Translations under genes and position numbers: made by a program
NCBI GenBank assembly: GCA_024686575.1
Contig: GCA_024686575.1_4863.1
Origin: a phage
Direction: 5' to 3' (one strand)
DNA: 64,000 nucleotides
Shown here: piece after piece, positions 1,629 through 59,882 of the stretch
Layout of the letters: each line of letters opens with the position of its first letter
Position numbering within the stretch: position 1 is the first letter of the stretch
The notes under the pieces: model-generated
The model's database searches: none
Told to the model about the DNA's origin: nothing
Seen by the model: only the letters and a program-made list of their open reading frames with translations

Positions 1629-1643
1629 AGATAATATCTATCT
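1629..1643 (-). promoter_or_regulatory. conserved 15-mer AGATAATATCTATCT (promoter-like), copy 1
   Basis: Exact 15-mer, 40 nt upstream of the ATG at 1589. Confidence 0.55.
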
Positions 1644-1694
1644 CAGATTACTTTGGGCACGGGTTCATACCCAGTGCCCGTAACGTAAAAAACT

Positions 1695-2393
1695 TTAGGG
1701 TATTAGGCGTTGGGCTATTTCGCGGAGTTGGTCGCGGGTTAAATCAGCCAACTTCTGGTCGCCGAAGCCCAACTTCAGACCCAGCTCGTACCCAGCTTGC
1801 GGATACGTGTTCGTGTTTGCTACTGAGAGGAGTGCATCGGCTATCTTTACCATCGTTAACTCGAGAGACGCATACGGGGCGGGGATCGGCTGATTCACGA
1901 TTTGGTAATTATAACGCACTGCGGCGTTATCGTAGTCAAACTCCATCCTTCTGCCGAGAACGTTAAACGACTCCGCAGAATAACTACCAAGTGGGTGATT
2001 GGCTTTTTCCCACAAATCTTTCCGTTCAGTAAACCCAGTCGCGAAGTTCTGACGTATGGTGTCGAATATTTGCGTTGCCTGGCTAGGGTGTATATTTTTC
2101 AGCTCATTGTAGTCGTAGTCGGCGATGGAATATAGAGTGAACACAACACCGTTTATATTTAACTGCGGATAATCCATCCGCAGACTGTCATCACCTTGTA
2201 AATGAAGTTCCCACATCCTTACCCACTGCAATATCGCGCTTACCGCATCGTGACTGAGATAAAAATTAGTAGGTTCTTCAGGATTTTCACGGAAGGGAAC
2301 AGAGCATTCCGATACAAAAAAGCCGGCTGCCATAAATCCTCTGCCGTCGAACATAGGCGCAACTAATCTTGATTTTTCTAAATTGATTACCAT
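1695..2393 (-). CDS. hypothetical protein
   Basis: 232-aa ORF with ATG start preceded by AAGGAG at 6-nt spacing; 15-mer motif 41 nt upstream. Confidence 0.6.
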   Translation of the reverse strand: MVINLEKSRLVAPMFDGRGFMAAGFFVSECSVPFRENPEEPTNFYLSHDAVSAILQWVRMWELHLQGDDSLRMDYPQLNINGVVFTLYSIADYDYNELKNIHPSQATQIFDTIRQNFATGFTERKDLWEKANHPLGSYSAESFNVLGRRMEFDYDNAAVRYNYQIVNQPIPAPYASLELTMVKIADALLSVANTNTYPQAGYELGLKLGFGDQKLADLTRDQLREIAQRLIP

Positions 2394-2433
2394 TACTGTC
2401 TCCTTAAGTTAAAACCGAACGACTCTCTCCCTA

Positions 2434-2448
2434 AGATAATATCTATCT
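2434..2448 (-). promoter_or_regulatory. conserved 15-mer AGATAATATCTATCT, copy 2
   Basis: Exact 15-mer, 41 nt upstream of the start at 2393, just downstream of the terminator for the 766-aa gene. Confidence 0.55.
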
Positions 2449-2460
2449 ATAAATTTTTAG

Positions 2461-2498
2461 AAAAAAAGAAAAAGCTTACTCCCCGAAGGGAGTAAGCT
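2461..2498 (-). terminator. rho-independent terminator
   Basis: Perfect hairpin AGCTTACTCCC-CGAA-GGGAGTAAGCT followed on the minus strand by a T-run (plus-strand A-run 2461-2472); directly downstream of the 766-aa gene. Confidence 0.7.
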
Positions 2499-2528
2499 AA
2501 TCTTAGGCAACGTAATCCTTACGGATTA

Positions 2529-9056: not shown

Positions 9057-9199
9057 TAGCCGCGACCTGTACACATGGCAACAGAGTTACCGTTATCGAT
9101 GCACTTGTTGTAATCTTGAGTTACAGTGATGGACAGTACCGCGAAAGCAACAACAGCAACGATGGCAAAGATGGCACGTTTATGGTTACGAGTTAACAT
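9056..9199 (-). CDS. small hydrophobic (single-pass membrane) protein, 47 aa
   Basis: Not in the track (<60 aa). ATG at 9197-9199 preceded by AAGGAG at 7-nt spacing; translation MLTRNHKRAIFAIVAVVAFAVLSITVTQDYNKCIDNGNSVAMCTGRG has a clear hydrophobic helix; 26-mer motif about 50 nt upstream. Confidence 0.45.
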   Translation of the reverse strand: MLTRNHKRAIFAIVAVVAFAVLSITVTQDYNKCIDNGNSVAMCTGRG

Positions 9200-9250
9200 G
9201 GCAATACTCCTTTAGATTAATAGTCGATTGAGTTGATAGATTGTCTTCTA

Positions 9251-9276
9251 TCACCTAGGTAATATATATCTGAAAT
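9251..9276 (-). promoter_or_regulatory. conserved 26-mer TCACCTAGGTAATATATATCTGAAAT, copy 1
   Basis: Identical 26-mer also at 17753-17778; shares the TAATAT..TATCT core with the 15-mer; upstream of the small membrane-protein gene. Confidence 0.5.
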
Positions 9277-17752: not shown

Positions 17753-17778
17753 TCACCTAGGTAATATATATCTGAAAT
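17753..17778 (-). promoter_or_regulatory. conserved 26-mer TCACCTAGGTAATATATATCTGAAAT, copy 2
   Basis: 43 nt upstream of the start at 17710. Confidence 0.5.
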
Positions 17779-41748: not shown

Positions 41749-43854
41749 TTACAACTCAATTACCACAGCGGCTCCTAGGTCATCGTACAACGATGCCGGG
41801 ATTTTGTACTCGGTATAAAAACCAACGCGATCGATATTCCCCTGCTGTCCTTCAAACAACAACATCGGAATTGCCGAGCGCAAACTAATGAGCGTGTTGT
41901 GATCGACAAACCGTTTCCCTGTAGCGTTAGTAGAATCCTCACTGTCAAATCCTACTGCCGGGAACGGATTGGTTGGCGACTCTACACGAGATATCGCCAA
42001 CATAATCGCAATGTGCGTCATCGGTATACCACTCAGCTTACGCTGGATATACTTAAACGTGTCCATCAACGCATAAGTACACTGTTTCTCTGTAGCACCA
42101 CCCATTTCAACCAACGTCACCGGTTTCACACGACCTTGTTTCTTGTTCAGCTTCACAGTCGAGGCTGTGTTGATGATTTCCACAATGTCTTCGTTCTTAT
42201 CGGCAGCAATCGAACGGAGCTTGGTTTCTAAGCCGGCTACGAACTCCGCCATCGATTCAGAACGGTTGGTGTAGACCAGGACCGGGTGTTTCGGGTTCCA
42301 TCCTTTTAAGGGGATTTCTACCGTCTTCTTCTCGATACGAATGTTCGCTCGTTGTTTCAAGAAGTAGTGCAGGAACGGTTTAGAGAAGTTCCCACAAACA
42401 CCCATTCGCACATCGATAGAATCCGCAGCGATTATCTGCCCATCTTCTAAACGACGTTGGAAAGTTAAGTCGGTGATTTCTGGTAATGCCGTTTCATCAA
42501 TTGCATCGAGATCTTCATGATACGCAATCTGGCTCAGCTCCGAATAAACTTTGTCGGTAACAACCAACTCGTATTCTGACCAATTCCCACGCTGTGGTTT
42601 TGGCAGCAAGCACAACCCTTTCAGAGAGTTATGTTTGTATTCGGTCATATACTCACGCATACGTGGGGTGAGTACCAGGTTGAGCAGATAACGCAAGAAG
42701 TCAAGGTGCTTGGTAGAGAGAATTCCCTGTGTACCCTTTTCCGAGATGGACGTGGATGCCAGGTGACCTGGTGACGTACCTTCAGAGAGGTTATAAATCA
42801 AATCCCCCATACAGGTCGCACAGATGGACTGATTCGCCATCTCTTTACAGGTCATGGCACTACGGAAGACCAGCGGTTTGCCAACCAGGTCTGCGTATCC
42901 GCCTTTCTCAAATCGCAACCACGGACCATTATCGCCTTCTAAACGATAACGCATCCCCACCATCGCTTTATAGGCACGCTCATCCAGCTGCGTATCCTTA
43001 AACGTGTAGCGGTGTGCGTGTGTTGTACCGCAGTCGTCGTACGTGAAATACATCAGTACGTTTGCTGCCAGCTGCAGTTTACGTGAGGCGTATTCTGCTT
43101 CGGCAATCTTGTCAGTGTTGTACAGGTGGGAACGTGAAGTTGCACCAGATTCTTTCAAACGCGAAATAACCGAATGCATTCCGGTAAAGAAGCCTTCCCA
43201 CACCTGATTGGTGTATACACGTGAGTCAATTTCTGACGTTTTGCCGCGCACGAACGCTTGCAGTACCTGGTTCATCTTCACGGTACCGTCCAGTACCGAC
43301 ATTACGACTGGGTTATACCGCAGCGCAGGGTCTTTGAAGATTTTCTCGATAAGCTTATACGCTTCTTCAACCATATCCTGACCATCTTCATCGTAGCCAG
43401 TAGGATACTGCACTTCCCACTGACGGATGAGTTCGAAGTTCGGGTGGTCGTAGATCTCCATCATCGTATCAAAGTCGATTGTCGTACAATAGGACAGCAA
43501 GTTCTTCACTGTCATGTTGAACGCATCGGCGTAGACATGTTGACTCAGGATATAACGCGTTTCAGCAAGGTCGACACCTGCTTTACGGGCCAGTACCGCT
43601 GCTTCCGACATAAAGTCCAGATGCAGGTCATCTGTTGCTACCTGACCTGGACGATACGCCATGGTCGATGGAGTGGGCACCTGCGGATACAGACGCGACA
43701 CACCCCAATACGGCCAGCTGAGTTTGATGTGGCGACTAGACATTTCCAACGACTTACCATCGTCGAAAGTCACGTAATAACGCCCGCGTAGTTTCCACAC
43801 CTGATCAGAGTTAAGCATACGCAAATCACGTACGTGTACAGAACGACCCGCCAT
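41749..43854 (-). CDS. multisubunit RNA polymerase beta'-like subunit, C-terminal part
   Basis: 701 aa; STSISEKGTQGILSTKH resembles the beta' trigger loop (SIGEPGTQLTMRTFH); ATG overlaps the TAA of the upstream beta-like gene (TAATG). Confidence 0.6.
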   Translation of the reverse strand: MAGRSVHVRDLRMLNSDQVWKLRGRYYVTFDDGKSLEMSSRHIKLSWPYWGVSRLYPQVPTPSTMAYRPGQVATDDLHLDFMSEAAVLARKAGVDLAETRYILSQHVYADAFNMTVKNLLSYCTTIDFDTMMEIYDHPNFELIRQWEVQYPTGYDEDGQDMVEEAYKLIEKIFKDPALRYNPVVMSVLDGTVKMNQVLQAFVRGKTSEIDSRVYTNQVWEGFFTGMHSVISRLKESGATSRSHLYNTDKIAEAEYASRKLQLAANVLMYFTYDDCGTTHAHRYTFKDTQLDERAYKAMVGMRYRLEGDNGPWLRFEKGGYADLVGKPLVFRSAMTCKEMANQSICATCMGDLIYNLSEGTSPGHLASTSISEKGTQGILSTKHLDFLRYLLNLVLTPRMREYMTEYKHNSLKGLCLLPKPQRGNWSEYELVVTDKVYSELSQIAYHEDLDAIDETALPEITDLTFQRRLEDGQIIAADSIDVRMGVCGNFSKPFLHYFLKQRANIRIEKKTVEIPLKGWNPKHPVLVYTNRSESMAEFVAGLETKLRSIAADKNEDIVEIINTASTVKLNKKQGRVKPVTLVEMGGATEKQCTYALMDTFKYIQRKLSGIPMTHIAIMLAISRVESPTNPFPAVGFDSEDSTNATGKRFVDHNTLISLRSAIPMLLFEGQQGNIDRVGFYTEYKIPASLYDDLGAAVVIEL

Positions 43855-46091
43855 TATTTATCCTCCCGAATTGGACGCACTAATTCAAAACCTTCACAGC
43901 GATGGATGTTACGTATCATCCTGTCAATCTGCGAATCACCCATTGGCAGTTTCTTACGATCGACCAGCACCCCTGGATTGGTTGGTGTTGGCGAGTTATA
44001 CAGCCCCGTTACGATCGCACGGTGTACCGCAGGGTTATTAGCGCGGTCATGAGTTTCGGGGAAGTTGCCCGGACCAAAGCCGTCGGTAAGACGCTGCTCG
44101 GAAGGACCACCCCACTTCAACCCTTTCAGGTTAATCGGATATGAACCACGTCCTTGGTTGGATGCATCAATACAACCCAAATAGTTCGTGTACATCGACG
44201 AGATACTGGAGAACTCACGACCGGTTTTATCCAGGCGCAGAGTCTCTACCATGCCGACGTAAAACTGGTTCTTCGTCCACTCTTTCTCACCCTGATAGTT
44301 AGTAATCAGTAGCTTAGACTTGCGTGGTGCATACTCGCCTAGAGCACGGCAGATTTCTACCTGGGTAGCATTCAATTCGTGGGGAAGCCAGATACGAATC
44401 GTGAAGTCGTAAATCTCTTTAAAGAGTTCCAGACGTGACCCAGTATCCGGGTGACTGGCATTGAGATAGAATGTCCAGCGTGGGTTATAGCGATCGATAT
44501 AGTCCATCAGGATTTCCCAGGCTTCATCAACCTGGTTGGCGGCAAGTAAAGGTTTCAACCGCATCTTCAACTGCTCGGATGCAGCAGACCAATACATGTG
44601 GAACAGCGCAGCATAAGTCGAACGACGAATTACGGCGTTCATGGAACGAATGACATGCACACGTTCTCCGAACTCGTTAATCGGCATTTCTTCATCAGGC
44701 CGCACTGCGCCCACGATACCTTTTGTACCTGAACGGTCGGTGATTTTCGATGAGACGGTAACTGGGATTGGATAACGTACCACGATGCGTATCGTGTAAC
44801 TACCAATTGGGTCCCAGAGACCACGCTGAACCGGCTGCGCCAGTTTGTTTAACACGTTCTTATCAGCAGAACGGTTATACTCGCCTTTACGCATGGCTTC
44901 ATCGTATTCACGACCAATCTCTTCACGGAAGTCGTTATAGACTTCATACGTCTCAGAACAGAACGCCTTGTCAAGAATCTCAAACGCTTTCGGTGACCAG
45001 ACGATATTCTTGTCCTTGGACATCGCAAAATAGAACCGTACGATATCATTGTAAAAACGTTTCAAAGCGTTCGCGTAGTGATCTAACTCGCGTTTGTTCT
45101 CTTCGGTACATGCGATATTGTTAACACCACGATCGCATTTGGTTTCGTCCCGCCATACCTGAATATCAACGACACGAGAACCGGTACGTTCCATCTTTTC
45201 AAAGTCGCCAGCCAGTCGCGCTTTGTAATGCTCAGGGTCGGCATCAACATACTCACAACGGTCGAAGTGCGGAGAGACATGTTGTGTTTCACCTACGTGC
45301 GAGTCAATGGCTGCCCATAGCTTATCGAAACGGCGCGCGGCAATAACCAACCCATCATCACGAATTGCCTGTCCTTTATTGGGCAGGTACTGTGGTCGAC
45401 GAACGCCATCAATACCCGTTGTCCCATACGTATCAAGCAGGTACTCGTCGTCGCGCAAGGTAAAGTCGATTGCACGCAAACCATAAGCGTGCATCGCTTT
45501 CGCTGCAGTTTCGGAGATGGTGTACGAGTCCTCGATAATGTCCGGGTGCGACATCGTCACGGTGTGCAGGTTGACCCCATCGACAAACTCACCGTCTTTC
45601 TGTGCCGGCAGCACGGTAAGCATTTCATCTTTTTCCAGGTGCTGCGTCTGCCCGCGCAGCAACGCCTGAAGTTTCCCAGTAGCCTCTTTCTTAGACGAGA
45701 AAATGTTATCGTGGTTGGTGTAATACTTAATATCGATTACATCAATCATCACTTTGCGCTGGTTGGTTAAATCTGCGCGCGTGAAGAAGATAACATGTTG
45801 GAGCGGTTCGTGATCCCCTTCACGACCATAGCGTGCAAAAACAGCTGCACGAGTAACACCTTCTTTGGTTGTGTAACTGCACACGGTACCACTGTCTTCC
45901 ACGATATCGTTAAAACAATAATCGTGGTAGTTCACATCAGCGCCGGTAAAATGGATAGTCGGATCTGGATTGTCCAGTGGTACCGCCGACTTCATATGTC
46001 CACCCACCATTGAGGCACGTGCCCCAGATACGCCAGTGATATTCACCTCACGGTCAGCAACGCTTGACATGAGTTCGACTGGTGTTTTCAT
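43854..46091 (-). CDS. multisubunit RNA polymerase beta-like subunit, C-terminal part
   Basis: 745 aa; DRSGTKGIVGAVRPDEEMP resembles the beta GRHGNKGVVSKI..EDMP segment, with a downstream YVGMVETLRLDK (compare YMYMLKLNHLVDDK); AAAGGAG RBS; 15-mer motif 31 nt upstream. Confidence 0.7.
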   Translation of the reverse strand: MKTPVELMSSVADREVNITGVSGARASMVGGHMKSAVPLDNPDPTIHFTGADVNYHDYCFNDIVEDSGTVCSYTTKEGVTRAAVFARYGREGDHEPLQHVIFFTRADLTNQRKVMIDVIDIKYYTNHDNIFSSKKEATGKLQALLRGQTQHLEKDEMLTVLPAQKDGEFVDGVNLHTVTMSHPDIIEDSYTISETAAKAMHAYGLRAIDFTLRDDEYLLDTYGTTGIDGVRRPQYLPNKGQAIRDDGLVIAARRFDKLWAAIDSHVGETQHVSPHFDRCEYVDADPEHYKARLAGDFEKMERTGSRVVDIQVWRDETKCDRGVNNIACTEENKRELDHYANALKRFYNDIVRFYFAMSKDKNIVWSPKAFEILDKAFCSETYEVYNDFREEIGREYDEAMRKGEYNRSADKNVLNKLAQPVQRGLWDPIGSYTIRIVVRYPIPVTVSSKITDRSGTKGIVGAVRPDEEMPINEFGERVHVIRSMNAVIRRSTYAALFHMYWSAASEQLKMRLKPLLAANQVDEAWEILMDYIDRYNPRWTFYLNASHPDTGSRLELFKEIYDFTIRIWLPHELNATQVEICRALGEYAPRKSKLLITNYQGEKEWTKNQFYVGMVETLRLDKTGREFSSISSMYTNYLGCIDASNQGRGSYPINLKGLKWGGPSEQRLTDGFGPGNFPETHDRANNPAVHRAIVTGLYNSPTPTNPGVLVDRKKLPMGDSQIDRMIRNIHRCEGFELVRPIREDK

Positions 46092-46121: not shown

Positions 46122-46136
46122 AGATAATATCTATCT
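46122..46136 (-). promoter_or_regulatory. conserved 15-mer AGATAATATCTATCT, copy 3
   Basis: Exact 15-mer 31 nt upstream of the RNAP beta-like gene start (46091), in the divergent region shared with the + gene at 46158. Confidence 0.55.
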
Positions 46137-46157
46137 GTTTTATTTTAAGGAGAGACG

Positions 46158-46481
46158 ATGCTAGATAAATTTGCTACCTTATCCGAAATAATACCTTCGC
46201 CTGATTCGACCAAGTATAAGGTGTTGCATGACTATACAGACTTCCTTCGCAAACACCCAGATACTACAGAAGAAGTTGTTGACCCAAAATATGCCTACCC
46301 AGAGGTACACAGTTTCTACGCGTACTGTCGTCTCAAACAGTACGATAATAGTATTATTTATCCGATGATGTTAATGAACGGAATTTCTACTCCGTTCGAT
46401 TTCACGCCAGAGATAAGAACCTTATTGGTTCCTAGTGTCGGTGTGGTAAGTAACATCTTATCGACTATCGTAGAATCTTGA
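46158..46481 (+). CDS. hypothetical protein
   Basis: 107-aa ORF, ATG with AAGGAG RBS; bidirectional terminator downstream. Confidence 0.5.
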   Translation: MLDKFATLSEIIPSPDSTKYKVLHDYTDFLRKHPDTTEEVVDPKYAYPEVHSFYAYCRLKQYDNSIIYPMMLMNGISTPFDFTPEIRTLLVPSVGVVSNILSTIVES

Positions 46482-46512
46482 AAAAAAGAAGGGACGCCCA
46501 GTCCCTTCTTTC
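46479..46512. terminator. bidirectional rho-independent terminator
   Basis: Hairpin GAAGGGAC-GCCCA-GTCCCTTC flanked by an A-run and a T-rich tract, between convergent genes. Confidence 0.65.
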
Positions 46513-46518
46513 TAACGC

Positions 46519-47886: not shown

Positions 47887-47898
47887 GGTTAATAATCC

Positions 47899-49599: not shown

Positions 49600-49611
49600 T
49601 TTAAATACTCC

Positions 49612-51246
49612 TTAAGAATTAAACCATTCAACTTCTTCTAACTTGCGACGTGCATTCAACACCATAAACTCCGCCAGGCTATTGTGCAGTGACAAGTGAG
49701 GTATATAGTTTGGCTGATCCGTCTCACACTTCAGCAGCGCAGCTGCTTCTGGTGTAGCCCTGAGATGGAACAGATACGGGTTGATGTGATCCTTGTGTAA
49801 CAAGGTCAGTGATTCCCGTGGTGTAGATTGCGGTTCGAGATTACGCGGGTTGCGATACTCCTGAAGATAATATCTATCTAAATCTGCTTTGAGTTCAGAT
49901 CGAATTGGGTCGGCTGCATAACCGGCAGACATCTCAGAACGCACCATATTGCAACTTAACAGTTGCGCAACGTCATACATTCCATAATTGAGATAAGTTG
50001 CCTGTGCTAACGCCATGCCGTAGCGAAACGCTTCTGGTCCACATTCGGTATACGTCTTATAATGCGCGCTACGATGGAGTGCTAATGCGACTAACCATTC
50101 GTGGAGCGTATAGACAGGACCGTCGTGTGTTGCCAGTTGCGAATCAATCAATAACTTAACATCTGCTGGAGCGGCATTATCCAGGCGCATTGTTTTCAAG
50201 AAAGAGCGGTATTCTTTAAATACGTACTCGGTACGGACGTATTCTTTCATCTGGGCAGGAGAACGTGCCTGCACCAAATCCATGGCGTTTATCTTACCCT
50301 TTTCGCCATTGAATATCACACTTTCTGGATGCGCTTTTAACAGCACCGGCTGGTTAGAGATTTTGTTTGCAAAACCTGTTTCAATCTCTTGTTTAACCAG
50401 AAAATACATGCCGGTGACGATATTGTTGTTAACCATGATTTCAACCGGTAATTCACCACCGACTTCACGGACAGCCAACAATTTAATAATAGCATACGCC
50501 AGGATATAATCTTCCATCATATCCGTGCCATAGCCCCGCACAGTAGCCAGTACCGACAAACTGGTGCTGTTCGTACCTTTGTTTGCCAGTTCTTTTTCTA
50601 CCTTTTCCATCACTGTCTGTAGGAACCCACGCAGTTTCGGAATAGCAGGTAAAGACATGACTTCTGTGTCTTGAAGCATCTCCAGACAGTATGTCAGATT
50701 GTACACCATTTTCCGATGTGTTTCGATTGGCAAGTTCTTACCTATCGGGAACGTCCCCATGGTGAGGAACACCGGAATATACGGTTTAATCATCAGGACC
50801 AGTATCAACAACTCGTAATAGTCCGGACGAATGTACGTCATCGCTTCCGGATAATTACTGTTCATTTCATCGTGCGTATCTTCCATGTTCTGCGGAATCC
50901 ACAGCTTATCGATGGGATACAGCTTACGATACACTTCGGCCTTGTGGAACTTCGCAATCGTCTGCACAATCTTCGGCATGTGCTTACGCTGCGTTTCCGT
51001 CGATTCGTTTGCCAGCTCGTCCAGCATCAGATACGCCATGAACAGTTCATCTTGTTCGTCTGGCGTTAAATAATCCCACACGCGTTGTAATTCCATGAAG
51101 AGAATGTTGTCGCGTGCAATCTGTTTACCTTTAACAGTGATGTAGTCGGGTGCGTTGTTATCCTTCCGATAACGTAAGCCAATAAATGAGACCTCTTGAC
51201 CATGATGCTCGATTGTCATCCGGTCTTTAATCTTCGTAATTTTCAT
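49612..51246 (-). CDS. hypothetical protein
   Basis: 544 aa, ATG with GGAG RBS; 15-mer motif 35 nt upstream; a second copy of the motif lies inside the 3' part of this ORF. Confidence 0.55.
   Translation of the reverse strand: MKITKIKDRMTIEHHGQEVSFIGLRYRKDNNAPDYITVKGKQIARDNILFMELQRVWDYLTPDEQDELFMAYLMLDELANESTETQRKHMPKIVQTIAKFHKAEVYRKLYPIDKLWIPQNMEDTHDEMNSNYPEAMTYIRPDYYELLILVLMIKPYIPVFLTMGTFPIGKNLPIETHRKMVYNLTYCLEMLQDTEVMSLPAIPKLRGFLQTVMEKVEKELANKGTNSTSLSVLATVRGYGTDMMEDYILAYAIIKLLAVREVGGELPVEIMVNNNIVTGMYFLVKQEIETGFANKISNQPVLLKAHPESVIFNGEKGKINAMDLVQARSPAQMKEYVRTEYVFKEYRSFLKTMRLDNAAPADVKLLIDSQLATHDGPVYTLHEWLVALALHRSAHYKTYTECGPEAFRYGMALAQATYLNYGMYDVAQLLSCNMVRSEMSAGYAADPIRSELKADLDRYYLQEYRNPRNLEPQSTPRESLTLLHKDHINPYLFHLRATPEAAALLKCETDQPNYIPHLSLHNSLAEFMVLNARRKLEEVEWFNS
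49865..49879 (-). promoter_or_regulatory. conserved 15-mer AGATAATATCTATCT, copy 4 (inside a coding region)
   Basis: Exact 15-mer embedded in the 3' part of CDS 49612..51246, 266 nt upstream of the next gene start (49599). Confidence 0.4.
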
Positions 51247-51280
51247 TATAGTTGAACTCCGCGAATAGTCGATTGCACTG

Positions 51281-51295
51281 AGATAATATCTATCT
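51281..51295 (-). promoter_or_regulatory. conserved 15-mer AGATAATATCTATCT, copy 5
   Basis: Exact 15-mer 35 nt upstream of the start at 51246. Confidence 0.55.
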
Positions 51296-51381
51296 CAATC
51301 TTCTTACAGTGTGTGTTGCAGGACCACGCATAAGCGTTAATAGCCCAAGGTCTCCCTTGGGCGTATTTTTTATTTTGTTTC

Positions 51382-52038: not shown

Positions 52039-52103
52039 TTCATCCTTTTCGGAAAAGCGGTCTAGTGGTTCACACATGATGTCCCACTAACGTAAATTTT
52101 AAC

Positions 52104-52940
52104 TTACTTCATAAGCCTGCGGAGCAGTTCAATTACAAATGGCTCATTCACCAGTTTTAGACAGTTATAAATACGGTCCATTGTGGTATCCTGTTTCCAG
52201 CTGTACTTCTCTGCGGTTTTTAACACCACCCCACGCGTTTTGCGATCGAGGGGTGAAAACATTATCCCGTCGCCAAACAACGTCAGGAACGCTTTGTTAA
52301 ACGGAATATGTTGGGGTTTCCCGTTAAGTTTGGTGTACCACTCCAGTTGCGTTTTCACTTTACCGGTATGTGATTCCAACAAACCCAGTTTAGGGAAATC
52401 TTTACGTGCCAGGAGATCAGCTGGCATGTGGGTCAGTAACAGTGTGTCGCGGCTACCCTCTGGGAAAACATCGAATTGACGGAAGTCATTTTCGTGTTTC
52501 TCACCGTACATCTTTAAAGTGTCGTGTTCCAGTGCATTATAGTGCAGCTGGTTTGGCGTCATCTTATCCTGACCGCCTGCAATGTTTTTGAACGAGGCTT
52601 CGGGAAACACTTTGTTAGCGCTACGATAGCTACAAAGGTACGGAACGCATAACACCGAAGGGGCTACCGCTCTCGCGGTAGCCGTAAGATTATTAATATC
52701 TTCTTCAATCGATGTTAGCATCACGTCGGGTGTTAACCGTTCTCTATTCTCTTCAAACGCATAGAAGGCGTTACGGAACAATGTCCGGAGATTCAGGTAT
52801 ATTTCCTGATAGGAATGGATAGGCAATTCGCCTTTCCAGTCGGCGTATTCGCCGGTATGCAGCAGACCTTCAAACGCCAGCGAACTGGCGATTGACACTG
52901 AATAGAACCCGAAAGTGCGATCAACACTGATTGGATTCAT
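52104..52940 (-). CDS. hypothetical protein
   Basis: 278-aa ORF overlapping the upstream gene by 4 nt. Confidence 0.5.
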   Translation of the reverse strand: MNPISVDRTFGFYSVSIASSLAFEGLLHTGEYADWKGELPIHSYQEIYLNLRTLFRNAFYAFEENRERLTPDVMLTSIEEDINNLTATARAVAPSVLCVPYLCSYRSANKVFPEASFKNIAGGQDKMTPNQLHYNALEHDTLKMYGEKHENDFRQFDVFPEGSRDTLLLTHMPADLLARKDFPKLGLLESHTGKVKTQLEWYTKLNGKPQHIPFNKAFLTLFGDGIMFSPLDRKTRGVVLKTAEKYSWKQDTTMDRIYNCLKLVNEPFVIELLRRLMK

Positions 52941-54088
52941 TCTATTTTCCTAATGATTGCAGTAACAACATCAGGGTCGTACTTCACTGATGTTAGCTCT
53001 TCGAGAACTAATCGTTCAAAGTTCTCAGGAGTAGGTTTTTCGTACACTGGGGCTTCGTTCGAAAAACTCTTCACTAACAACTCCTCTTCTTCAGAGGAGC
53101 GCACACGTTCTCCAGAAATGTGGAACGTGTATTCTTTTTTCCACCGACTAACATATTCGGCCATCGGTGAACCTGCGTAATACTCGACTTCAAATCGTCC
53201 AATAGCGGACGAAGGATGATTGTCGATGTATTCTAATGCAGAAAGACAAGCTGCTAACTGCGCATCAAAGTCTTCCTGTGCCCGAATCTTTTTCTGCGGG
53301 CACGCGCGTGGGTTAACCAGGAAATAGTCCCTGGCAACCGTATCGGTGAAATCGACAAGAGCTACGCCTTTGTCCTCCTCTTCACCTTGAGATAGTCGCT
53401 CAGGACTACCTACAACTCTTATCTTGTCTAATTCTTTAGGTCGATGGTCATGCCCGATAAATATCAGGTGCTTGACTCTCGGCAACCAGAACTCCTCGTG
53501 GAAAGAACGAGGGGACTCGACAGGGAGTTGAAACTGGAAGCAGCCGTGCATGAAGATAAAGTCTAACTTCTCCAAGCCTCGTGTCGCCATCAGTTCTGCC
53601 ATTTCTGCCTCAGTGGCAGCAGCATTAATTTCATCGACGCCAGCAGCTTTATATTCGTCCTGCACCCAACCTACCGTCGCATCGAGAGCCGGATCGTAAA
53701 ATATCCCGATCCCTGCCAAATACAAACAGTCTGCGCCTATACTGATGTTCAGCGACTCAACTATTTTGGACTGGCCGTGGTCATGGGACGGTGTTCCCTC
53801 AACGATGCGAACTGCGGTATTGGTGGCCTTAGACCACTGGAGCAACCACGTCAAGAAGCCCACAGCTTCTTGAGAATCTTCCTGGCGAAGATGTCGGGAA
53901 TCATCAAATAAATCTCCCGCTATATAAAAGGCATCAAGCGTATTTTCGCAGCTAATGAGTACCTCACGTATCACATCCACGATGTGCCAAGTAGGCACAC
54001 GCTTATGCAACAAATGGATATCATTAGTGTTCAAAAGGCGCTTAACGCCTTCTGGTTTCTTGGGAGGTTTAGTAATCTTCTCCATCAC
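52937..54088 (-). CDS. calcineurin-like metallophosphoesterase, Mre11/SbcD-type nuclease candidate
   Basis: 383 aa; phosphoesterase motifs in order and spacing: TNDIHL (D-x-H), IAGDLFDD (GDxxD), VEGTPSHDHG (GNHD-like), FIFMHGCF and IFIGHDHRP (GH/GHxH). Confidence 0.65.
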   Translation of the reverse strand: MMEKITKPPKKPEGVKRLLNTNDIHLLHKRVPTWHIVDVIREVLISCENTLDAFYIAGDLFDDSRHLRQEDSQEAVGFLTWLLQWSKATNTAVRIVEGTPSHDHGQSKIVESLNISIGADCLYLAGIGIFYDPALDATVGWVQDEYKAAGVDEINAAATEAEMAELMATRGLEKLDFIFMHGCFQFQLPVESPRSFHEEFWLPRVKHLIFIGHDHRPKELDKIRVVGSPERLSQGEEEDKGVALVDFTDTVARDYFLVNPRACPQKKIRAQEDFDAQLAACLSALEYIDNHPSSAIGRFEVEYYAGSPMAEYVSRWKKEYTFHISGERVRSSEEEELLVKSFSNEAPVYEKPTPENFERLVLEELTSVKYDPDVVTAIIRKIE

Positions 54089-54743
54089 CGATCCCTACGA
54101 TTGGCTGCGTTTGAGCTGGGGCTTGCACCGAAGTCTCTGCAGCTGTCGCCGTGTTTTTACCGCCGGTAATTTTATCGACGTATTCAACCAACCCTTCCGG
54201 ATATGGCAATTGACCACCCACACCGTAGCGTCGGAAAATCCAGTTCAGCAAGTCAATAATGTACTTCGCACGAACTGAATTTTCAGCCAGAGACATATTT
54301 TCGATCCCAGTTAGGGTGTAATCGATCATCTTGTACATCTGGGTTTCACCGACGGTTGCAATCACATCAACCTGACGACGGATGTACTCAGTCTCATCAG
54401 AGAGGGAAGGTTCGCCGTCAACGGTGATTAACGAGCGGCCGGTGTTCAGCAGAGCGGGGATGGTAAATAGCAGTTTGCTATTATCAGCATCGTCCACAAT
54501 CTGTAGGGGTACAAATGGACTTCCTACGTAAGCCGTCCAGGTCTCTTCGTTAAAAGTACCATCAAGCATCCCGGACAACAGTGGTAAGCCCTGACGTCGG
54601 AACTGTGCTTCGGTGAAGACGCTACAGACGTTCTGGCTTTCCGCCAAATCCTTTTCAATCTCTTTGAGTTTGTTATACTCAAAGCGCATCTGCTCATTCA
54701 TCTGGCTTAACGGTACACCGTTAAATGTAGGTTCCTGGCTCAT
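54069..54743 (-). CDS. hypothetical protein
   Basis: 224-aa ORF; start overlaps the upstream stop. Confidence 0.5.
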   Translation of the reverse strand: MSQEPTFNGVPLSQMNEQMRFEYNKLKEIEKDLAESQNVCSVFTEAQFRRQGLPLLSGMLDGTFNEETWTAYVGSPFVPLQIVDDADNSKLLFTIPALLNTGRSLITVDGEPSLSDETEYIRRQVDVIATVGETQMYKMIDYTLTGIENMSLAENSVRAKYIIDLLNWIFRRYGVGGQLPYPEGLVEYVDKITGGKNTATAAETSVQAPAQTQPIVGIGDGEDY

Positions 54744-55129
54744 TACATATCCTCAATCGCACTCGACTCGGTATCCACGTACCGCTCAACATCGTACCAT
54801 TCACCGTCTGCAACTTCTTGCACACGGACACTAATGAAGATGCGGTAGCGCACATCTGAATCTTTTAAAAACTCCCAGCTGGTTTCAACTTCAACGCCAG
54901 CAGGAAATACGTTCCCGTAGAGGTTCTCCAAATCCATTTTAATCTGGGCAACCATCCCGTCGGGATCTTGTGCAAACACAGCTTGCGTATACGCAAGTGA
55001 TTTAATGTTCCCACGATAAACTACCGATTGGCTATAGCCTGATTCGGTATAATGGTTCATCAGCTCACGCGCCTTTTCCTGGGGTGTACGTGCCCAGCCA
55101 CGTGTGGATAAAGTTCCTACCGCAATCAT
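54743..55129 (-). CDS. hypothetical protein
   Basis: Track ORF 54743..55189; internal ATG at 55127-55129 has AGGAG at 6-nt spacing and follows the upstream stop. Confidence 0.45.
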   Translation of the reverse strand: MIAVGTLSTRGWARTPQEKARELMNHYTESGYSQSVVYRGNIKSLAYTQAVFAQDPDGMVAQIKMDLENLYGNVFPAGVEVETSWEFLKDSDVRYRIFISVRVQEVADGEWYDVERYVDTESSAIEDM

Positions 55130-55130
55130 G

Positions 55131-55556
55131 TTAGCTCCTGTCAAATTCAAGGACGGAAATGTAATATTTGCCTGGTCGATAGTCCGCATACTTAACGGTG
55201 TCGACTTGATGGTAAACTTTTACACCCCGAAATGTTAACCAATGATATTTGATACTCAGCTTACGGCTAGCGACGAACTCCTCGTCTAACCGCCAGGCTT
55301 GTTCAGGAGGCACATCTAATCCAACGAGCAGATCCTTCTCATCTATCTCGAGATACGCACCATAATCACCAACCACCACACGGTTCCAACGTAGGCATAC
55401 AGATACACCGCCTATTGTGGCAGCCCTTACCTTATCGAACCCGTTTAAGTGTTGCTGATAAACTGACAAAGCTTCTTCACGCACTTTCTTGGGCAATGGT
55501 CGGTATCGATACCGTGCTGCCAAGCCCTCGATATACGCCAATATAGGATGCTGCAT
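55131..55556 (-). CDS. hypothetical protein
   Basis: 141-aa ORF; terminator upstream of its start region. Confidence 0.45.
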   Translation of the reverse strand: MQHPILAYIEGLAARYRYRPLPKKVREEALSVYQQHLNGFDKVRAATIGGVSVCLRWNRVVVGDYGAYLEIDEKDLLVGLDVPPEQAWRLDEEFVASRKLSIKYHWLTFRGVKVYHQVDTVKYADYRPGKYYISVLEFDRS

Positions 55557-55570
55557 ACAGCCCCCAGTGA

Positions 55571-55604
55571 AGAAAAAAAGAGGGGCCGAAGCCCCGTCTT
55601 TTTA
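55571..55604. terminator. rho-independent terminator (possibly bidirectional)
   Basis: Hairpin GGGGC-CGAA-GCCCC flanked by an A-run and CTTTTT. Confidence 0.6.
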
Positions 55605-56183
55605 ACACGTCGCGCCAAGTTCCGAACAGGGATCACCATCTTCCCAGTCGAAAGCTGACATACGTGCCCAGTTAAGTTGAATATCCACTTTATCGATTCG
55701 ACTCAGTCGTACTGCGCGATCTTCATTGGTAGCCCATTGCCAAATCTTATCTTCATCGTACTTCGTCGAAATGCCCGATGTTGCTTCGCGGAAGTGGTCA
55801 TCGGTACGCATATACGCATTCCCTTTGAACACATCCAACCGCGAAAAGCCATTCTCATAACCAGTCGCCATACCGTCATTATACAACTTACGATATTCCG
55901 GCATGGCAACGAGGAATGGCTGTAAAGCAGCATTGGCGAACTGGAATTCACCCAACTCTTCGATCTGTCTTACCATCTCTACCGCGTCGCTATAACGTAA
56001 CTTACGTGCGGTACTGAATGTTTCACGGAAACGCTCCAGTGAGATTAAGTCCTGACAATGTTCTTTTACACGGTCAACGAGATCGGGTGCCAGGCTAGAC
56101 AGCGAAAACGATTCTTTGAATACGCTGAGTGCCCCGCTACCTTCGGTCTGTTTCGTCCACACCGTGCTACCTTGTAGCCACAT
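55602..56183 (-). CDS. hypothetical protein
   Basis: 193-aa ORF. Confidence 0.5.
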   Translation of the reverse strand: MWLQGSTVWTKQTEGSGALSVFKESFSLSSLAPDLVDRVKEHCQDLISLERFRETFSTARKLRYSDAVEMVRQIEELGEFQFANAALQPFLVAMPEYRKLYNDGMATGYENGFSRLDVFKGNAYMRTDDHFREATSGISTKYDEDKIWQWATNEDRAVRLSRIDKVDIQLNWARMSAFDWEDGDPCSELGATC

Positions 56184-56196
56184 TACAATACTCCTA

Positions 56197-57792
56197 TTAG
56201 CCCATCACCGCTTCCAACGGAATGCCTTCTTCATCGTCCTCATCTGTCTCAATAAGGAACTGGTTCTGCATACTGATTAGCTCGTTATGTAAAACCATGC
56301 CGTGTTCTACGCGGTCCACATCAGTAGAAGACATAAAGCCGTTATCTGGACGGAATTGGAGCGCCAACTTCATCTCAGTTTCATCGACTGGCAAACGTAC
56401 CTGGAACTGGTCACCATCGAAATCTCCATTTGCCATCTTTATCACACGGTCAGAGATACGCAGCGAACACTGGTTAACATCGGTAACAACTTCGTCGATG
56501 AACAGCGTCTGAATAGACAACTGTACCAGCGTCGGGTTACGCAGCGGTATGACCATGATCCCAAGACCACCTGGGGATTCGCGAATCAGTTCTTTAAAGA
56601 TTTCGTCTACAAGCGGGTCATACTGCATTGCCGCTTTTGCAACGATACGTTCACATTGCCGTGACGAATAACCCCGTCGTAGCAATTTATTCTCGATGTG
56701 GGTCGACATCAACCCAACCATCCAACGCCATGGTGCTTTTAACTTCCAGGCATCGTGTGGTTCTGAGATAGGTGAGATGGTTGCGCGACCACCGAACGGA
56801 ATATGGGTGGAACCCAATTTCGCGCGATAGTCACCCGGTTTACCTTCCATAGACTCACGACGGAAGTCCATGTGGAAGTACGTTAACTGACGGTTCGCTT
56901 TCAAAGCGCGACTAATCAGAAAACGCGGTTCGATCGCTTTACGCCGCGTATAAAGTAACGCGATATTTTTCACCGCATCAATAGCACCCGTGAACACTGG
57001 GTCTACCATGACACCACGACGACCTTCCTCAGTAACGATAAGTTTAGAGGAGATTAGCGGTAAGTGTCTTGGGAAGAATGCATGGCGTTGCGTTTCGAAT
57101 AGCTCCTTCCATTGTAAACGTAAGCGTTCGCCTTCAGCGGCGTTATGCCGATTAGGTGCGAAGATTTCCTTCCAGGCTTCTGGCGTGGTAAGGATGTTAA
57201 AGATACTAACGTGGTTATCAACCAGATTGCGCAAGCCACGAACGAAACCATGTTCTTCCAATACACGTTTCACAGCATGTGCGCGTTTACCGTCTGGTTC
57301 TTCTATAAGGTAATACGGGTCAATCATCCACATCATCAAGTCATTACCGCGTTCGATAGTGACCTTGTTACGTTCAAACTTCTTCAACTTGCTATTAAAG
57401 AAAGCATTGAACATTGCCCAGAATCGTGGGTTGACGAAGTTACCCATTTCATCAGGTGCACGTAACCATACATCGGATTCAATTCGATGTTCAGTTACAA
57501 CATAGCCACACGTCGGACACTTACAACCGAGATTGTAACGATGCGCGATCGGTGCCGGACAATCCAAACTACAAATCGGTGCAGAGTTCAGTTCTTCGTC
57601 AACGATTCTGTTCTGTACCATGCGATCGATAAGTTCAGCAACCTCGATCGCATCCCCGTTAACAGCGACATCGTTAATAATAGTGGGTGGTTTAATACCT
57701 TTGGCAGCAGCTTCTATTTGCAAATCGGACAAATAGTTATCCTGACTAACCAATCGGCCGGATATTCCGTAGAATTTTGGTACCTTTCTCAC
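56197..57792 (-). CDS. multisubunit RNA polymerase beta'-like subunit, N-terminal part
   Basis: 531 aa; zinc-finger-like CSLDCPAPIAHRYNLGCKCPTCGYV and catalytic-motif-like NGDFDGDQ (canonical NADFDGD); GTG start with GAGG RBS. Confidence 0.8.
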   Translation of the reverse strand: MRKVPKFYGISGRLVSQDNYLSDLQIEAAAKGIKPPTIINDVAVNGDAIEVAELIDRMVQNRIVDEELNSAPICSLDCPAPIAHRYNLGCKCPTCGYVVTEHRIESDVWLRAPDEMGNFVNPRFWAMFNAFFNSKLKKFERNKVTIERGNDLMMWMIDPYYLIEEPDGKRAHAVKRVLEEHGFVRGLRNLVDNHVSIFNILTTPEAWKEIFAPNRHNAAEGERLRLQWKELFETQRHAFFPRHLPLISSKLIVTEEGRRGVMVDPVFTGAIDAVKNIALLYTRRKAIEPRFLISRALKANRQLTYFHMDFRRESMEGKPGDYRAKLGSTHIPFGGRATISPISEPHDAWKLKAPWRWMVGLMSTHIENKLLRRGYSSRQCERIVAKAAMQYDPLVDEIFKELIRESPGGLGIMVIPLRNPTLVQLSIQTLFIDEVVTDVNQCSLRISDRVIKMANGDFDGDQFQVRLPVDETEMKLALQFRPDNGFMSSTDVDRVEHGMVLHNELISMQNQFLIETDEDDEEGIPLEAVMG

Positions 57793-57805
57793 TCTGTCAA
57801 CCTCA

Positions 57806-57845
57806 ACAAAAAAAGAGGGAAGGACGGAGGCGTTAGCCCCCGTCC
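57806..57845 (-). terminator. terminator-like stem-loop
   Basis: Imperfect hairpin GGACGGAGG...CCCCCGTCC preceded on the plus strand by an A-run; downstream of the 617-aa gene. Confidence 0.45.
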
Positions 57846-57874
57846 GTTTCCTAACTACTCAGTAACCGATTCGA

Positions 57875-59728
57875 TTACAGTTTGAAGTTGCTCAGAGACA
57901 CGCCCAGACCGAAATCGGAACCGCTTGCAGACAGGCCGTTGCCAGACAGCGTGAAGTCTTCCCCACCGTTGTTGAAGAACAGGGAGGTCGCCATCGTGTT
58001 GTAGGCATTTACACCAGTCATAGACCAGGTGCAGTTGTTACGGACGAAGTCCAGCAGGCATTTACCGAAGATCGGGTTGATAGCCATATCCAGAGATTCA
58101 CCGGTAGCTTGCGGTGCTTTGGATGCGAACAGAGAAGCGGCCAGTTTCAGCATGTAGATACGCTGCTGACGCTCGTTCAGTTCACGGTGGCTGTAGGACT
58201 GTGCGTTCAGGTAGCTATAGACGTCGTTCGCGTTATCACCCAGTTTGGTAACAACGGAAATCAGGTCCATATCCTGGAAGCTGCGTTTCTGTGCAGTACC
58301 GGTGTAAACACCGGAAACAGTCGGTACGGCTGCTTTCACGATGTGGCTGCAATGGATGGTACCATTGAAGGCATCGCCCAGCTGTGCTTTCAGTGCAGAA
58401 GCAAATACTGCAGTGAAGCTGGTCGCTGCAACAACTTCGCCGTTCTGATCACGCGGGGACATGGAATTCAGAATAGCGAGCAGCTGTTTCAGAGAGTTGT
58501 CGTAACCGACCGCAATTTCAGACAGCATAGTAGACAGACCACCCAGGCCGTTACCGGCACGATGGCTAACTACCAGTGCTGCTTCACGCGGTGCGAACAT
58601 ATCCAGGCAACCTTCGATAGCTTCACGGCTACCGTCGATTTTGGATACATCAGGACGAGCGTCAGCACCCCAGGACAGGTATTCTGCCACACGGGAGAAC
58701 TTGCGATCTTGTTTGTTCAGGCGTTTCACAAACAGGTCACGCCAGCCACCGATTGCCGCGATTTCTGCAAATGCAGCCAGCAGCAGCAGTTGACGTTCAT
58801 ACGGTGCCATTGCACCTTCAGTTTGAGAATCGACCAGACTTACTACGATTTCAGCCTGCAGCTGTTTCAGGTCGTAGACGCCGTTAACGACAGGCTTCTG
58901 ACCGGTGAAACGCATATTGACGAAACCGGTACCGGATACACGCGGATACACCTGTACCTGATTGGTGTCCAGCAGAGTCGGAGTGGCATCGGTTACGTTG
59001 CTTGGGCTGTGCTCAACGGTGATTGCGAAATCAGCACGTTGTGCGTGGCCGTTAGCATCCACAACCGCGCCATCTTCCAGCGGCATTACTGAGGCCTGAT
59101 AACGGTCATGCTTACGCAGGTTCAGTGTACCCAGGTAGCCTGCGATACGACCGAAGATTCCCATCATCATCTGACCCATCAGGGTACGTGCCCACTCAGC
59201 ATCCAGAACTTTACCCAAGTCTGGTACGGAGTTGATGATCATGAAGTTCGCATTGGTCAGACCATGCGCTTCCATGATGTTTTTCTGTACTACTGCCAGC
59301 ACGTCTTTGTTGAACAGTTCAGTGATGGTGTAGTAGTCTTCCTGGCCGTTGTTGGTGGTTTCTTTCAGACGCAGAGACTGACCGCGTTCAAAGAAGATAA
59401 TACCGTACAGCCAGTGGCCCTGCCATTGGCCTGCGACGTACGCCGCGGAACCCATTTCGTTACCCACGCCGACGATGGTGCCCCAGCGGAATGCGTTGAG
59501 GTATTCGTTGCTTTTCTTCAGCTCATCCAGGAGGTTGGTGAAGTGCATTGCATAAGTGCTGATGTTGCGGATGCCAAATGCGTTATCGAATTGGCTGACA
59601 GTAGAAGTACCCGGCACAGCAGTTTGCACTTTTACAGTCTCGTTGCCCAGACCGCCCAGTGGTGCGGTGTCTTGAGTCTGAGTGTTGTTCTGCTGAGCGT
59701 TGTTGTTAGAGTCAACGATTTTTACCAT
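57875..59728 (-). CDS. abundant-protein candidate (nuclear-shell-like or major structural protein); function unassigned
   Basis: 617 aa; ATG with AAGGA RBS; two copies of the 15-mer motif upstream (59774-59788, 59868-59882) and a terminator-like hairpin downstream; Gly/Ser-rich C-terminus. Confidence 0.6.
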   Translation of the reverse strand: MVKIVDSNNNAQQNNTQTQDTAPLGGLGNETVKVQTAVPGTSTVSQFDNAFGIRNISTYAMHFTNLLDELKKSNEYLNAFRWGTIVGVGNEMGSAAYVAGQWQGHWLYGIIFFERGQSLRLKETTNNGQEDYYTITELFNKDVLAVVQKNIMEAHGLTNANFMIINSVPDLGKVLDAEWARTLMGQMMMGIFGRIAGYLGTLNLRKHDRYQASVMPLEDGAVVDANGHAQRADFAITVEHSPSNVTDATPTLLDTNQVQVYPRVSGTGFVNMRFTGQKPVVNGVYDLKQLQAEIVVSLVDSQTEGAMAPYERQLLLLAAFAEIAAIGGWRDLFVKRLNKQDRKFSRVAEYLSWGADARPDVSKIDGSREAIEGCLDMFAPREAALVVSHRAGNGLGGLSTMLSEIAVGYDNSLKQLLAILNSMSPRDQNGEVVAATSFTAVFASALKAQLGDAFNGTIHCSHIVKAAVPTVSGVYTGTAQKRSFQDMDLISVVTKLGDNANDVYSYLNAQSYSHRELNERQQRIYMLKLAASLFASKAPQATGESLDMAINPIFGKCLLDFVRNNCTWSMTGVNAYNTMATSLFFNNGGEDFTLSGNGLSASGSDFGLGVSLSNFKL

Positions 59729-59773
59729 TTTAAATATTCCTTAATAGTGATTGCAATCATAGTTCGGTTCGCA

Positions 59774-59788
59774 GAGATAATATCTGCC
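59774..59788 (-). promoter_or_regulatory. 15-mer variant AGATAATATCTGCCT, copy 6
   Basis: Two mismatches; 46 nt upstream of the 617-aa gene start (59728). Confidence 0.45.
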
Positions 59789-59867
59789 TGTAATTTCATG
59801 GAATGCAAGTATGCCGTCGCTTACTTACAAGGCACATAGTCCAGACATTTCTCAGGAACTGTCACAT

Positions 59868-59882
59868 AGATAATATCAATCT
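59868..59882 (-). promoter_or_regulatory. 15-mer variant AGATAATATCAATCT, copy 7
   Basis: Two mismatches; second copy in the same intergenic region, also about 50 nt upstream of the + gene start at 59935. Confidence 0.4.

Follow-up and report, generated by a model that had tools for sequence, protein, structure and literature searches.

A 15-mer recurs along the 64,000-nt stretch of phage DNA analysed here (the window), which is 98.9% identical to the Salmonella jumbo phage SPN3US, and the question it raises is whether it is a promoter and, if so, which polymerase reads it. SPN3US possesses both a virion (vRNAP) and a non-virion (nvRNAP) multisubunit RNA polymerase (PMC5694885, PMC7598289), and subunits of the vRNAP have been reported from its virions (PMC5694885, PMC5312081). 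A first, sequence-only reading had proposed a promoter for one of the phage polymerases or for host sigma-70. We suggest that the 15-mer is very probably the early promoter core of this SPN3US-like (Seoulvirus) phage, read by the multisubunit vRNAP; the orientation, intergenic placement and conservation of the motif, its likeness to phiKZ and AR9 promoters and the genes downstream of it support the proposal of a phage promoter and narrow it to the vRNAP early class.

Recurrence and placement of the motif

The 15-mer AGATAATATCTATCT occurs exactly at 1629, 2434, 46122, 49865 and 51281, all on the plus strand as written, and an exact search thus recovered the same five copies that had been listed from the sequence. 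No exact copy is expected in the window and none of 100 dinucleotide-preserving shuffles contained one, so that chance recurrence is indeed negligible; with up to three mismatches allowed, there are 12 matches against 1.05 expected. A 42-nt PWM picks out exactly nine sites in the window (33.7-46.4 bits), while the best non-site scores, from palindromic echoes, are 12-14 bits and the 99.99th percentile over all window positions is 0.15 bits. Two of these sites, at 9257 and 17759, come in addition to the earlier list, each reading AGGTAATATATATCT with two mismatches. The near copies had been placed at 59774 and 59868 with two mismatches each; the former does have two mismatches but starts at 59775, and the latter has only one. 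A three-mismatch match at 53554 scores below 8 bits and is no site, and minus-strand matches at 1625 and 59864 echo genuine sites through their palindrome.

All nine sites are oriented with minus-strand genes, as the constant orientation noticed at the outset had indicated. The spacing to the start codon, first described as mostly 30-46 nt, is somewhat wider, at 31-58 nt from the 15-mer for seven sites; the other two lie at 140 nt (the distal copy before the chimallin gene) and 266 nt (the intragenic copy at 49865). A genome-wide count, which the sequence-only reading had suggested as a check, gave 23 sites above 32 bits in SPN3US, with the next scores at or below 15 bits and none between. Every one of the 23 is co-oriented with the following gene. 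Coding sequence makes up 93.6% of the genome, yet 21 of the sites lie entirely between genes (binomial P ~2e-23).

The motif stands at orthologous positions in STsAS, Asesino, phiEaH2, Machina, ChrisDB and CR5, related phages that span four genera and share 64-80% identity with the window in their chimallin-region DNA; the conserved sites include both chimallin copies and the intragenic copy. The k-mers enriched ahead of the full set of 264 genes were confined to Shine-Dalgarno words, T-runs of terminators and the motif described here, with no other promoter motif among them, in agreement with the view that middle and late promoters of jumbo phages are impossible to predict bioinformatically (PMC7598289). 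In the full texts available, a literature search with four sub-strings of the motif gave no relevant paper.

Motif architecture and likeness to known early promoters

On the gene strand the motif reads AGATAGATATTATCT or the variant AGATATATATTACCT; its ~41 bits are spread over about -34 to +2, numbered from an invariant G six bases past ATTAY that we take as +1. From upstream to downstream it comprises an A/T tract with TTTC at -23 to -20, AGATA at -19 to -15, an invariant-rich core (A-13 T-12 A T T A Y-7), C-6 T-5 and four variable bases before the G, and the positions invariant among the SPN3US sites are A-29 (in the A/T tract), A-13, T-12, T-10, A-8 and G+1. The ATATTAY core is invariant or nearly so at 23 of 23 SPN3US sites and at all nine window sites, with 0 expected by chance, and the G follows ATTAY by exactly 6 nt at all 23 SPN3US sites, at 39 of 39 sites in the relatives and at 7 of 7 phiKZ sites. 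Roughly half of the predicted SPN3US transcripts (~11 of 23) open with a hairpin whose stem begins at nt +1, +2 or +3; the stem sequence varies between genera and the pairing is retained. These 5' hairpins give indirect support to the conserved G as the putative 5' end of the transcript.

This promoter class is already known from phiKZ and AR9, and the motif is an expected member of it. The early vRNAP promoters of phiKZ-like (Chimalliviridae) jumbo phages are marked by a strongly conserved, AT-rich stretch of ~10 nt with its centre near -10, and their transcription resists rifampicin and needs no new protein synthesis. The transcription start sites of phiKZ and phiR1-37 lie 6 nt past the consensus, and the AR9 early promoter is AAATATATATTAT-(6N)-G+1 (PMC5312081). 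Re-deriving the pattern from the first 50 kb of phiKZ, we found seven of seven copies to read TATATTAC-(6N)-G, all gene-co-oriented; the nuclear-shell gene PHIKZ054 lies downstream of one of them. The class-B sites of SPN3US (see below) are TATATTAC-CTAGGT-G and thus show the octamer, the 6 nt and the G of the phiKZ early promoters. An A/T-rich tract upstream of about -19 is also common to the two phages, as are ~20-30 gene-co-oriented copies per genome, a copy before the nuclear-shell gene, and leaders of roughly 30-40 nt (PMC8244752, PMC10914365). Unlike phiKZ, SPN3US has a majority class GATATTAT, with G at -14 and T at -7, and additionally conserves the AGATA and the CT at -6/-5. The chimallin gene has two early-type promoters in tandem in SPN3US, whereas its phiKZ counterpart is served by a single early promoter and a middle one (PMC8244752). 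The start sites given here for SPN3US are predicted, whereas the early promoters of phiKZ and AR9 have been mapped experimentally. The likeness to AR9 is similar in kind: the core agrees with AGATAKATATTAY at 11-12 of 13 positions, the spacing to G+1 is again 6 nt, and the AR9 early genes are transcribed by the injected vRNAP (PMC5312081), as we propose for SPN3US. AR9 differs in its uracil-containing genome, its Gram-positive host and an A, not G, at the second position; the class-B leader module of SPN3US has no described equivalent there.

Genes behind the motif

Chimallin and all five nvRNAP subunit homologues (PHIKZ055, 068, 071, 074 and 123) each come first or second after a copy, the nvRNAP genes starting 45-2282 nt from the nearest upstream one. 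The nearest upstream copy is 5.7-28 kb away for the five vRNAP genes, 4.7 kb for the capsid gene and 11 kb for the terminase gene; none of the SPN3US sites is at a virion polymerase or structural gene. The nvRNAP genes of phiKZ and AR9 are early and transcribed by the vRNAP (PMC7598289).

All of the features that follow are on the minus strand. Two copies do precede the 617-aa gene, as had been noticed from the sequence. The distal core AGATTGATATTATCT (59868..59882; 44.8 bits) has its putative +1 G at 59863, with a predicted 135-nt leader, and belongs to a block conserved in 7 relatives; the proximal core AGGCAGATATTATCT (59775..59789; 36.3 bits), also conserved in relatives, has its putative +1 G at 59770, 42 nt from the ATG at 59728. 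A search for conserved RNA structure between both promoters gave no more than a 5-bp hairpin, which is weak (-4.8 kcal/mol) and shows little covariation. The 617-aa gene (57875..59728), the first behind these tandem promoters, owes its name to a fold search, since sequence searches gave none: Pfam returned nothing, PHROGs only an unnamed family, and against the PDB both phmmer and a 6-sequence profile were without a match. With its AF2 model (pLDDT 74.8), the top nine Foldseek matches in the PDB are all chimallins (E=4e-21 to 2e-16, TM 0.6-0.69; for chimallin see Laughlin 2022, PMC9365700), and the search confirms the product as a homologue of the chimallin (ChmA/PhuN) nuclear-shell protein. 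Chimallin is reported to be abundant in infected cells (PMC7552025, PMC7411985), and it is plausible that the two promoter copies lead to very high chimallin expression. The second gene of the unit (56197..57792) encodes the nvRNAP beta'-N subunit, a PHIKZ055 homologue (phmmer against PDB 7ogp_A, E=2e-38).

The core at 51281..51295 (exact 15-mer; 38.1 bits) has its putative +1 G at 51276, which leaves 30 nt to the ATG (51246) of the gene for the fifth nvRNAP subunit, a 544-aa PHIKZ068 homologue (49612..51246; phmmer against PDB 7ogp_B, E=2.2e-6 over ~390 residues). Within the 3' end of this gene lies a further core at 49865..49879 (exact 15-mer; 36.8 bits), whose putative +1 G at 49860 is 261 nt ahead of a 566-aa gene (start 49599); the product of the latter has no PDB homologue. 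An orthologue of this intragenic copy is retained in STsAS, Asesino, phiEaH2, Machina and ChrisDB. Its location in a coding region and its 261-nt leader are atypical and count against an early vRNAP promoter. The core at 46122..46136 (exact 15-mer; 33.7 bits; conserved in relatives) has its putative +1 G at 46117, 26 nt short of the ATG (46091), and is followed at 41749..46091 by nvRNAP beta (745 aa, PHIKZ071 homologue) and beta'-C (701 aa, PHIKZ074 homologue), which phmmer matched in the PDB to 7ogp_C (E=2.4e-29) and 7ogp_D (E=8.8e-39), respectively.

Near the left end of the window, the core at 2434..2448 (exact 15-mer; 46.4 bits; putative +1 G 2429) stands directly past the terminator of the major-capsid gene (2498-2473) and ahead of a 232-aa ORF (ATG 2393; phrog_15414). 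The core at 1629..1643 (exact 15-mer; 42.1 bits; putative +1 G 1624) precedes a 334-aa ORF without a PDB homologue, whose ATG at 1589 was taken from the SPN3US annotation. Next comes the gene for nvRNAP beta-N, the PHIKZ123 homologue, which is cut off by the window edge at base 1; its part at 1-573 shares 100% identity with the SPN3US gp189 N-terminus, and gp189 in turn matches PHIKZ123 (7ogp_E) with E=3e-20.

The two remaining cores, both AGATATATATTACCT, are of class B (AGATATATATTACYT-AGGTGAG), which has six sites in SPN3US. The one at 17759..17773 (46.3 bits; putative +1 G 17754) contains the phiKZ octamer TATATTAC; a strong terminator hairpin (17836-17811) lies just upstream, and a 5' hairpin, also present in the SPN3US orthologue, a CGACTAT box and the ATG at 17710 of a 253-aa ORF follow. 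The other, at 9257..9271 (44.4 bits; putative +1 G 9252), precedes a 47-aa ORF with its ATG at 9199. The class-B cassette spans ~70 nt and includes a 5'-terminal RNA hairpin from +1, and five of the six sites have a AATCGACTAT(T)A box ~27 nt before the start codon. We can only speculate that the early promoters fall into two functionally distinct sub-classes, with class B an immediate-early regulon separate from class A, and on balance we doubt it. If it were true, class-B leaders might stabilise their mRNAs, direct their export from the early-infection vesicle or control their translation, and class-A promoters would separately drive chimallin and the nvRNAP.

The reader of the motif and early transcription

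T4 early genes are expressed by the host sigma-70 holoenzyme, and the Salmonella holoenzyme might likewise use TATTAT as the -10 box of the early genes here. As a counterpoint to reading by the vRNAP, the TATTAT-like hexamer at -12 to -7 relative to the conserved G, with a purine start ~7 nt downstream, does resemble the -10 box of an extended -10 promoter, and the A/T-rich upstream tract could serve as an UP element. Two jumbo phages that encode RNAPs, RSL2 and RSF1, are sensitive to rifampicin (PMC7598289), so that host independence is not universal in this group. The TAATAT in which the sequence-only reading had seen a possible sigma-70 element is on the wrong strand, however, gene orientation giving TATTAT or TATTAC. 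The motif has no -35 element (the consensus at -35 to -30 is nA(C/T)TCn), and -15/-14 are A plus G or T instead of a TG extension; a sigma-70 scan called none of the nine sites through the TATTAT/TATTAC hexamer, and its sigma-70-like totals match those of shuffles (18 vs 21.7; 26 vs 26.0). The hexamer tolerates G-11 (4 of 23 SPN3US sites) and C-7 (7 of 23), together 11 of 23. These two bases, normally A-11 and T-7, are flipped into sigma region 2 and are the positions most needed. Conservation also reaches well beyond the hexamer, since positions that sigma-70 does not read (AGATA at -19 to -15, CT at -6/-5, G+1 and A-29) are as conserved as the hexamer itself, and in phiKZ the same octamer and spacing serve the vRNAP in a rifampicin-resistant infection (PMC7598289). 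Recognition by host sigma-70 is thus not borne out, and we consider it very unlikely.

Slightly less probable still is a middle or late promoter of the nvRNAP. The phage does encode this second polymerase, and sequence alone is silent on the enzyme that binds; all five of its own subunit genes sit behind the motif, however, and the nvRNAP therefore cannot make its own first copies. The known nvRNAP promoters also look very different (late TATG in phiKZ, AACA-6N-TA/G in AR9; PMC7598289), and the structural genes, which are late in relatives, are without the motif. Least probable of all, an operator for a dimeric DNA-binding regulator would account for the perfect inverted repeat AGATA-T-TATCT in the last 11 bases (AGATATTATCT) and for the palindromic echoes on the opposite strand in the mismatch search, but we reject it because the SPN3US sites show no compensatory variation (T at position 6 faces C or T at 14, never A; in 7 sites, position 13 is C opposite an A at position 7) and because the element is strongly asymmetric, with its extra AGAT, upstream A/T tract and downstream G, and always runs in the direction of the genes (23 of 23).

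For the early vRNAP promoter that we favour, the reader, the start site and the early timing are inferred from the likeness to phiKZ and AR9. The vRNAP would enter the cell with the phage DNA and recognise these promoters, most sites yielding transcripts with 26-53-nt leaders; chimallin, all five nvRNAP subunits and many small host-takeover genes would be switched on early, and the nvRNAP would afterwards run middle and late transcription. Reviews have already noted that a motif of this kind can be identified in all jumbo phages that encode RNAPs, and the current picture of their transcription is unchanged. What the analysis adds is a precise and testable map of predicted early starts, nine in the window and 23 in SPN3US, a genetic model for nucleus-forming jumbo phages. 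This map links the nuclear-shell gene and every nvRNAP subunit to one promoter class, and may be of use for operon annotation, phage engineering and the design of in vitro assays of the vRNAP.

Occurrence of the motif in the window and in SPN3US

The repeated 15-mer, a candidate core of an early promoter, is present as exact AGATAATATCTATCT copies at 1629, 2434, 46122, 49865 and 51281, just as the sequence-only reading had listed them, and its recurrence is indeed beyond chance, with no exact match in 100 dinucleotide-preserving shuffles; a search of the window allowing up to 3 mismatches returned 12 matches against 1.05 expected. The two copies described upstream of the 617-aa gene (57875..59728, minus strand) are both real, but the one placed at 59774, with two mismatches as claimed, starts at 59775, and the one correctly placed at 59868 carries a single mismatch instead of two. 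A further two copies, at 9257 and 17759 (two mismatches each), had been overlooked, while the partly palindromic core is echoed by opposite-strand matches at 1625 and 59864. Scored with a 42-nt weight matrix derived from the whole-genome site set, nine window positions and no more reach 33.7-46.4 bits, and all nine lie in the minus-strand orientation, so that the claim of a single orientation holds. Next in rank come the echoes, with 12-14 bits, and the 99.99th percentile over all positions falls at 0.15 bits; the 3-mismatch match at 53554 is not a site by this matrix.

An 18-kb part of the window (44000-62000) aligns in reverse orientation, at 98.9% identity, with SPN3US, a Salmonella jumbo phage (Seoulvirus), and with its close relatives, and the complete annotated SPN3US genome (240,413 bp) was used for the genome-wide site set. 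The weight-matrix scan of SPN3US gives 23 sites above 32 bits, with all other positions at or below 15.4 bits. Every one of the 23 shares its strand with the next gene, and 21 are fully intergenic in a genome that is 93.6% coding (P about 2e-23); of the remaining two, one overlaps the very end of a gene, and the other is intragenic.

Anatomy of the element and the class-B cassette

The motif has the gene-strand sequence AGATAGATATTATCT; a variant, AGATATATATTACCT, also recurs. With the invariant G four bases past the 15-mer set as +1, the putative start, conservation among the 23 SPN3US sites adds up to ~41 bits between roughly -34 and +2. The conserved positions are A-34, T-32, A-29 (invariant), TTTC at -23..-20 and AGATA at -19..-15 upstream; G/T at -14, A-13, T-12, A-11, T-10, T-9, A-8 and T/C at -7 in the core; and C-6 and T-5, then G+1 and A+2, downstream. 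From the putative +1 G to the start codon there are 26-53 nt at seven window sites (taking for copy 1629 the start codon of the SPN3US annotation, 1589) and 135 nt for the distal copy at 59868. Terminator-like hairpins found by a scan precede copies 2434 and 17759, and inverted repeats lie upstream of copies 1629 and 9257. For RefSeq gp236 the annotation places the start 27 nt further downstream than the first in-frame ATG past the promoter.

T-14 co-occurs with C-7 (Fisher p=5e-4). The variant sites, class B as opposed to the majority class A, are found in SPN3US at 56294, 65413, 94239, 113986, 165687 and 223277, and their cassette occupies 9180-9275 and 17700-17775 of the window, both on the minus strand. 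The cassette reads AGATATATATTACYT-AGGTGAG, with a hairpin from the putative +1, followed in 5/6 sites by a AATCGACTAT(T)A box ~27 nt upstream of the ATG; at orthologous sites the box is present in STsAS, Asesino and phiEaH2 and absent in Machina, ChrisDB and CR5. A degenerate motif at SPN3US 167506, upstream of RefSeq gp082, scores 8.6 bits, with a core-to-G spacing one base shorter and, 27 nt ahead of the ATG, the CGACTAT box seen in class B; it could be an early promoter that is weak or has decayed.

Downstream genes and conservation in relatives

Sequence searches of Pfam and PDB gave no match for the 617-aa protein, while its AlphaFold model (pLDDT 74.8) finds significant matches among solved structures to chimallins only (Goslar, 201phi2-1 and PhiPA3; E=4e-21 to 2e-16, TM 0.6-0.69). 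Judged from this model, the protein is a chimallin, in agreement with Laughlin 2022 (PMC9365700); it is reported to be abundant in infected cells (PMC7552025, PMC7411985). [quoted passage not shown]

Proteins of 531, 544, 745 and 701 aa match the solved phiKZ non-virion polymerase (nvRNAP) as homologues of PHIKZ055, PHIKZ068, PHIKZ071 and PHIKZ074, respectively, and the gene truncated at the left edge of the window encodes exactly the N-terminal part of SPN3US gp189, itself a match to PHIKZ123. Chimallin and all five nvRNAP subunits are encoded by the first or second gene behind a copy, 45-2282 nt from it; the nearest upstream copy is 5.7-28 kb away for the five vRNAP genes, 4.7 kb for the capsid gene and 11 kb for the terminase gene. 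A 232-aa ORF (1695-2393, minus strand; phrog_15414) lies behind a promoter copy of its own and is complete in the window; in SPN3US (NC_027402) ~607 bp of it are deleted, and only its first ~70 nt and 3' end remain between the two promoter copies.

The motif is held at orthologous positions in STsAS, the Erwinia phages Asesino, phiEaH2, Machina and ChrisDB, and Cronobacter phage CR5, which share 64-80% DNA identity with the window in the chimallin region, and the G stands at unchanged spacing in 39/39 sites in relatives. The copies kept include both chimallin copies, which appear as conserved blocks in the aligned upstream regions, the one that precedes the RNAP beta gene, and the intragenic one. 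The latter (49865-49879) sits within the 3' coding end of the gene before it, the PHIKZ068 homologue (ORF 49612-51246), 261 nt from its G to the start codon of the next gene; since it is retained in 5/6 relatives examined, it looks functional, not accidental. Between the chimallin promoters, 59790-59862 holds a conserved block, AAGCGACGGCTTAC, with a small hairpin of 5 bp; among the relatives only CR5 lacks this block, and its consensus fold is weak (-4.8 kcal/mol).

The polymerase that would read the motif

In every RNAP-encoding jumbo phage a conserved AT-rich motif near -10 lies upstream of presumed early operons, and in every case tested it is an early (vRNAP) promoter (PMC7598289). AR9 early promoters read AAATATATATTAT-(6N)-G+1, and phiKZ and phiR1-37 starts also lie 6 nt past their consensus (PMC5312081). 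Re-deriving the element in the first 50 kb of phiKZ, we found seven TATATTAC octamers, all seven gene-co-oriented and followed by 6 nt and a G, one of them upstream of the nuclear-shell gene PHIKZ054. Class-B sites of SPN3US have the identical octamer at identical spacing (TATATTAC-CTAGGT-G), whereas class-A sites deviate from it at two positions. By analogy we infer that the SPN3US sites would be read early, by vRNAP, and from this G. The predicted start gains indirect support from 5' hairpins, with which about half of the predicted SPN3US transcripts open at +1 to +3, and in which the stem sequence varies between genera and the pairing is retained.

It is very unlikely that the host sigma-70 holoenzyme reads the TATTAT hexamer at -12..-7 as a -10 box: a -35 element is absent, G-11 or C-7 occurs in 11/23 sites, conserved bases reach far outside the positions read by sigma-70, and a sigma-70 scanner called 0 of the nine window sites through TATTAT, with sigma-70-like counts equal to those of shuffles. 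An nvRNAP promoter is harder still to credit and was excluded, because no polymerase can transcribe the genes encoding its own first molecules, and all five nvRNAP subunit genes lie behind copies of a motif that is itself unlike known nvRNAP motifs. In phiKZ and AR9 the nvRNAP genes are early and transcribed by the injected enzyme (PMC7598289). Least probable of all is a regulator binding at the palindrome AGATA-T-TATCT, which compensatory changes do not preserve, within an element that is asymmetric and oriented.

Early vRNAP promoters, the reading we prefer, are a class already known, and the SPN3US motif itself was probably already predicted by Lavysh 2016. What is modestly new are the tandem arrangement of early copies ahead of chimallin, kept in four genera, the intragenic copy with its conservation, and a coherent class-B promoter-leader cassette with 5' hairpin and CGACTAT box.
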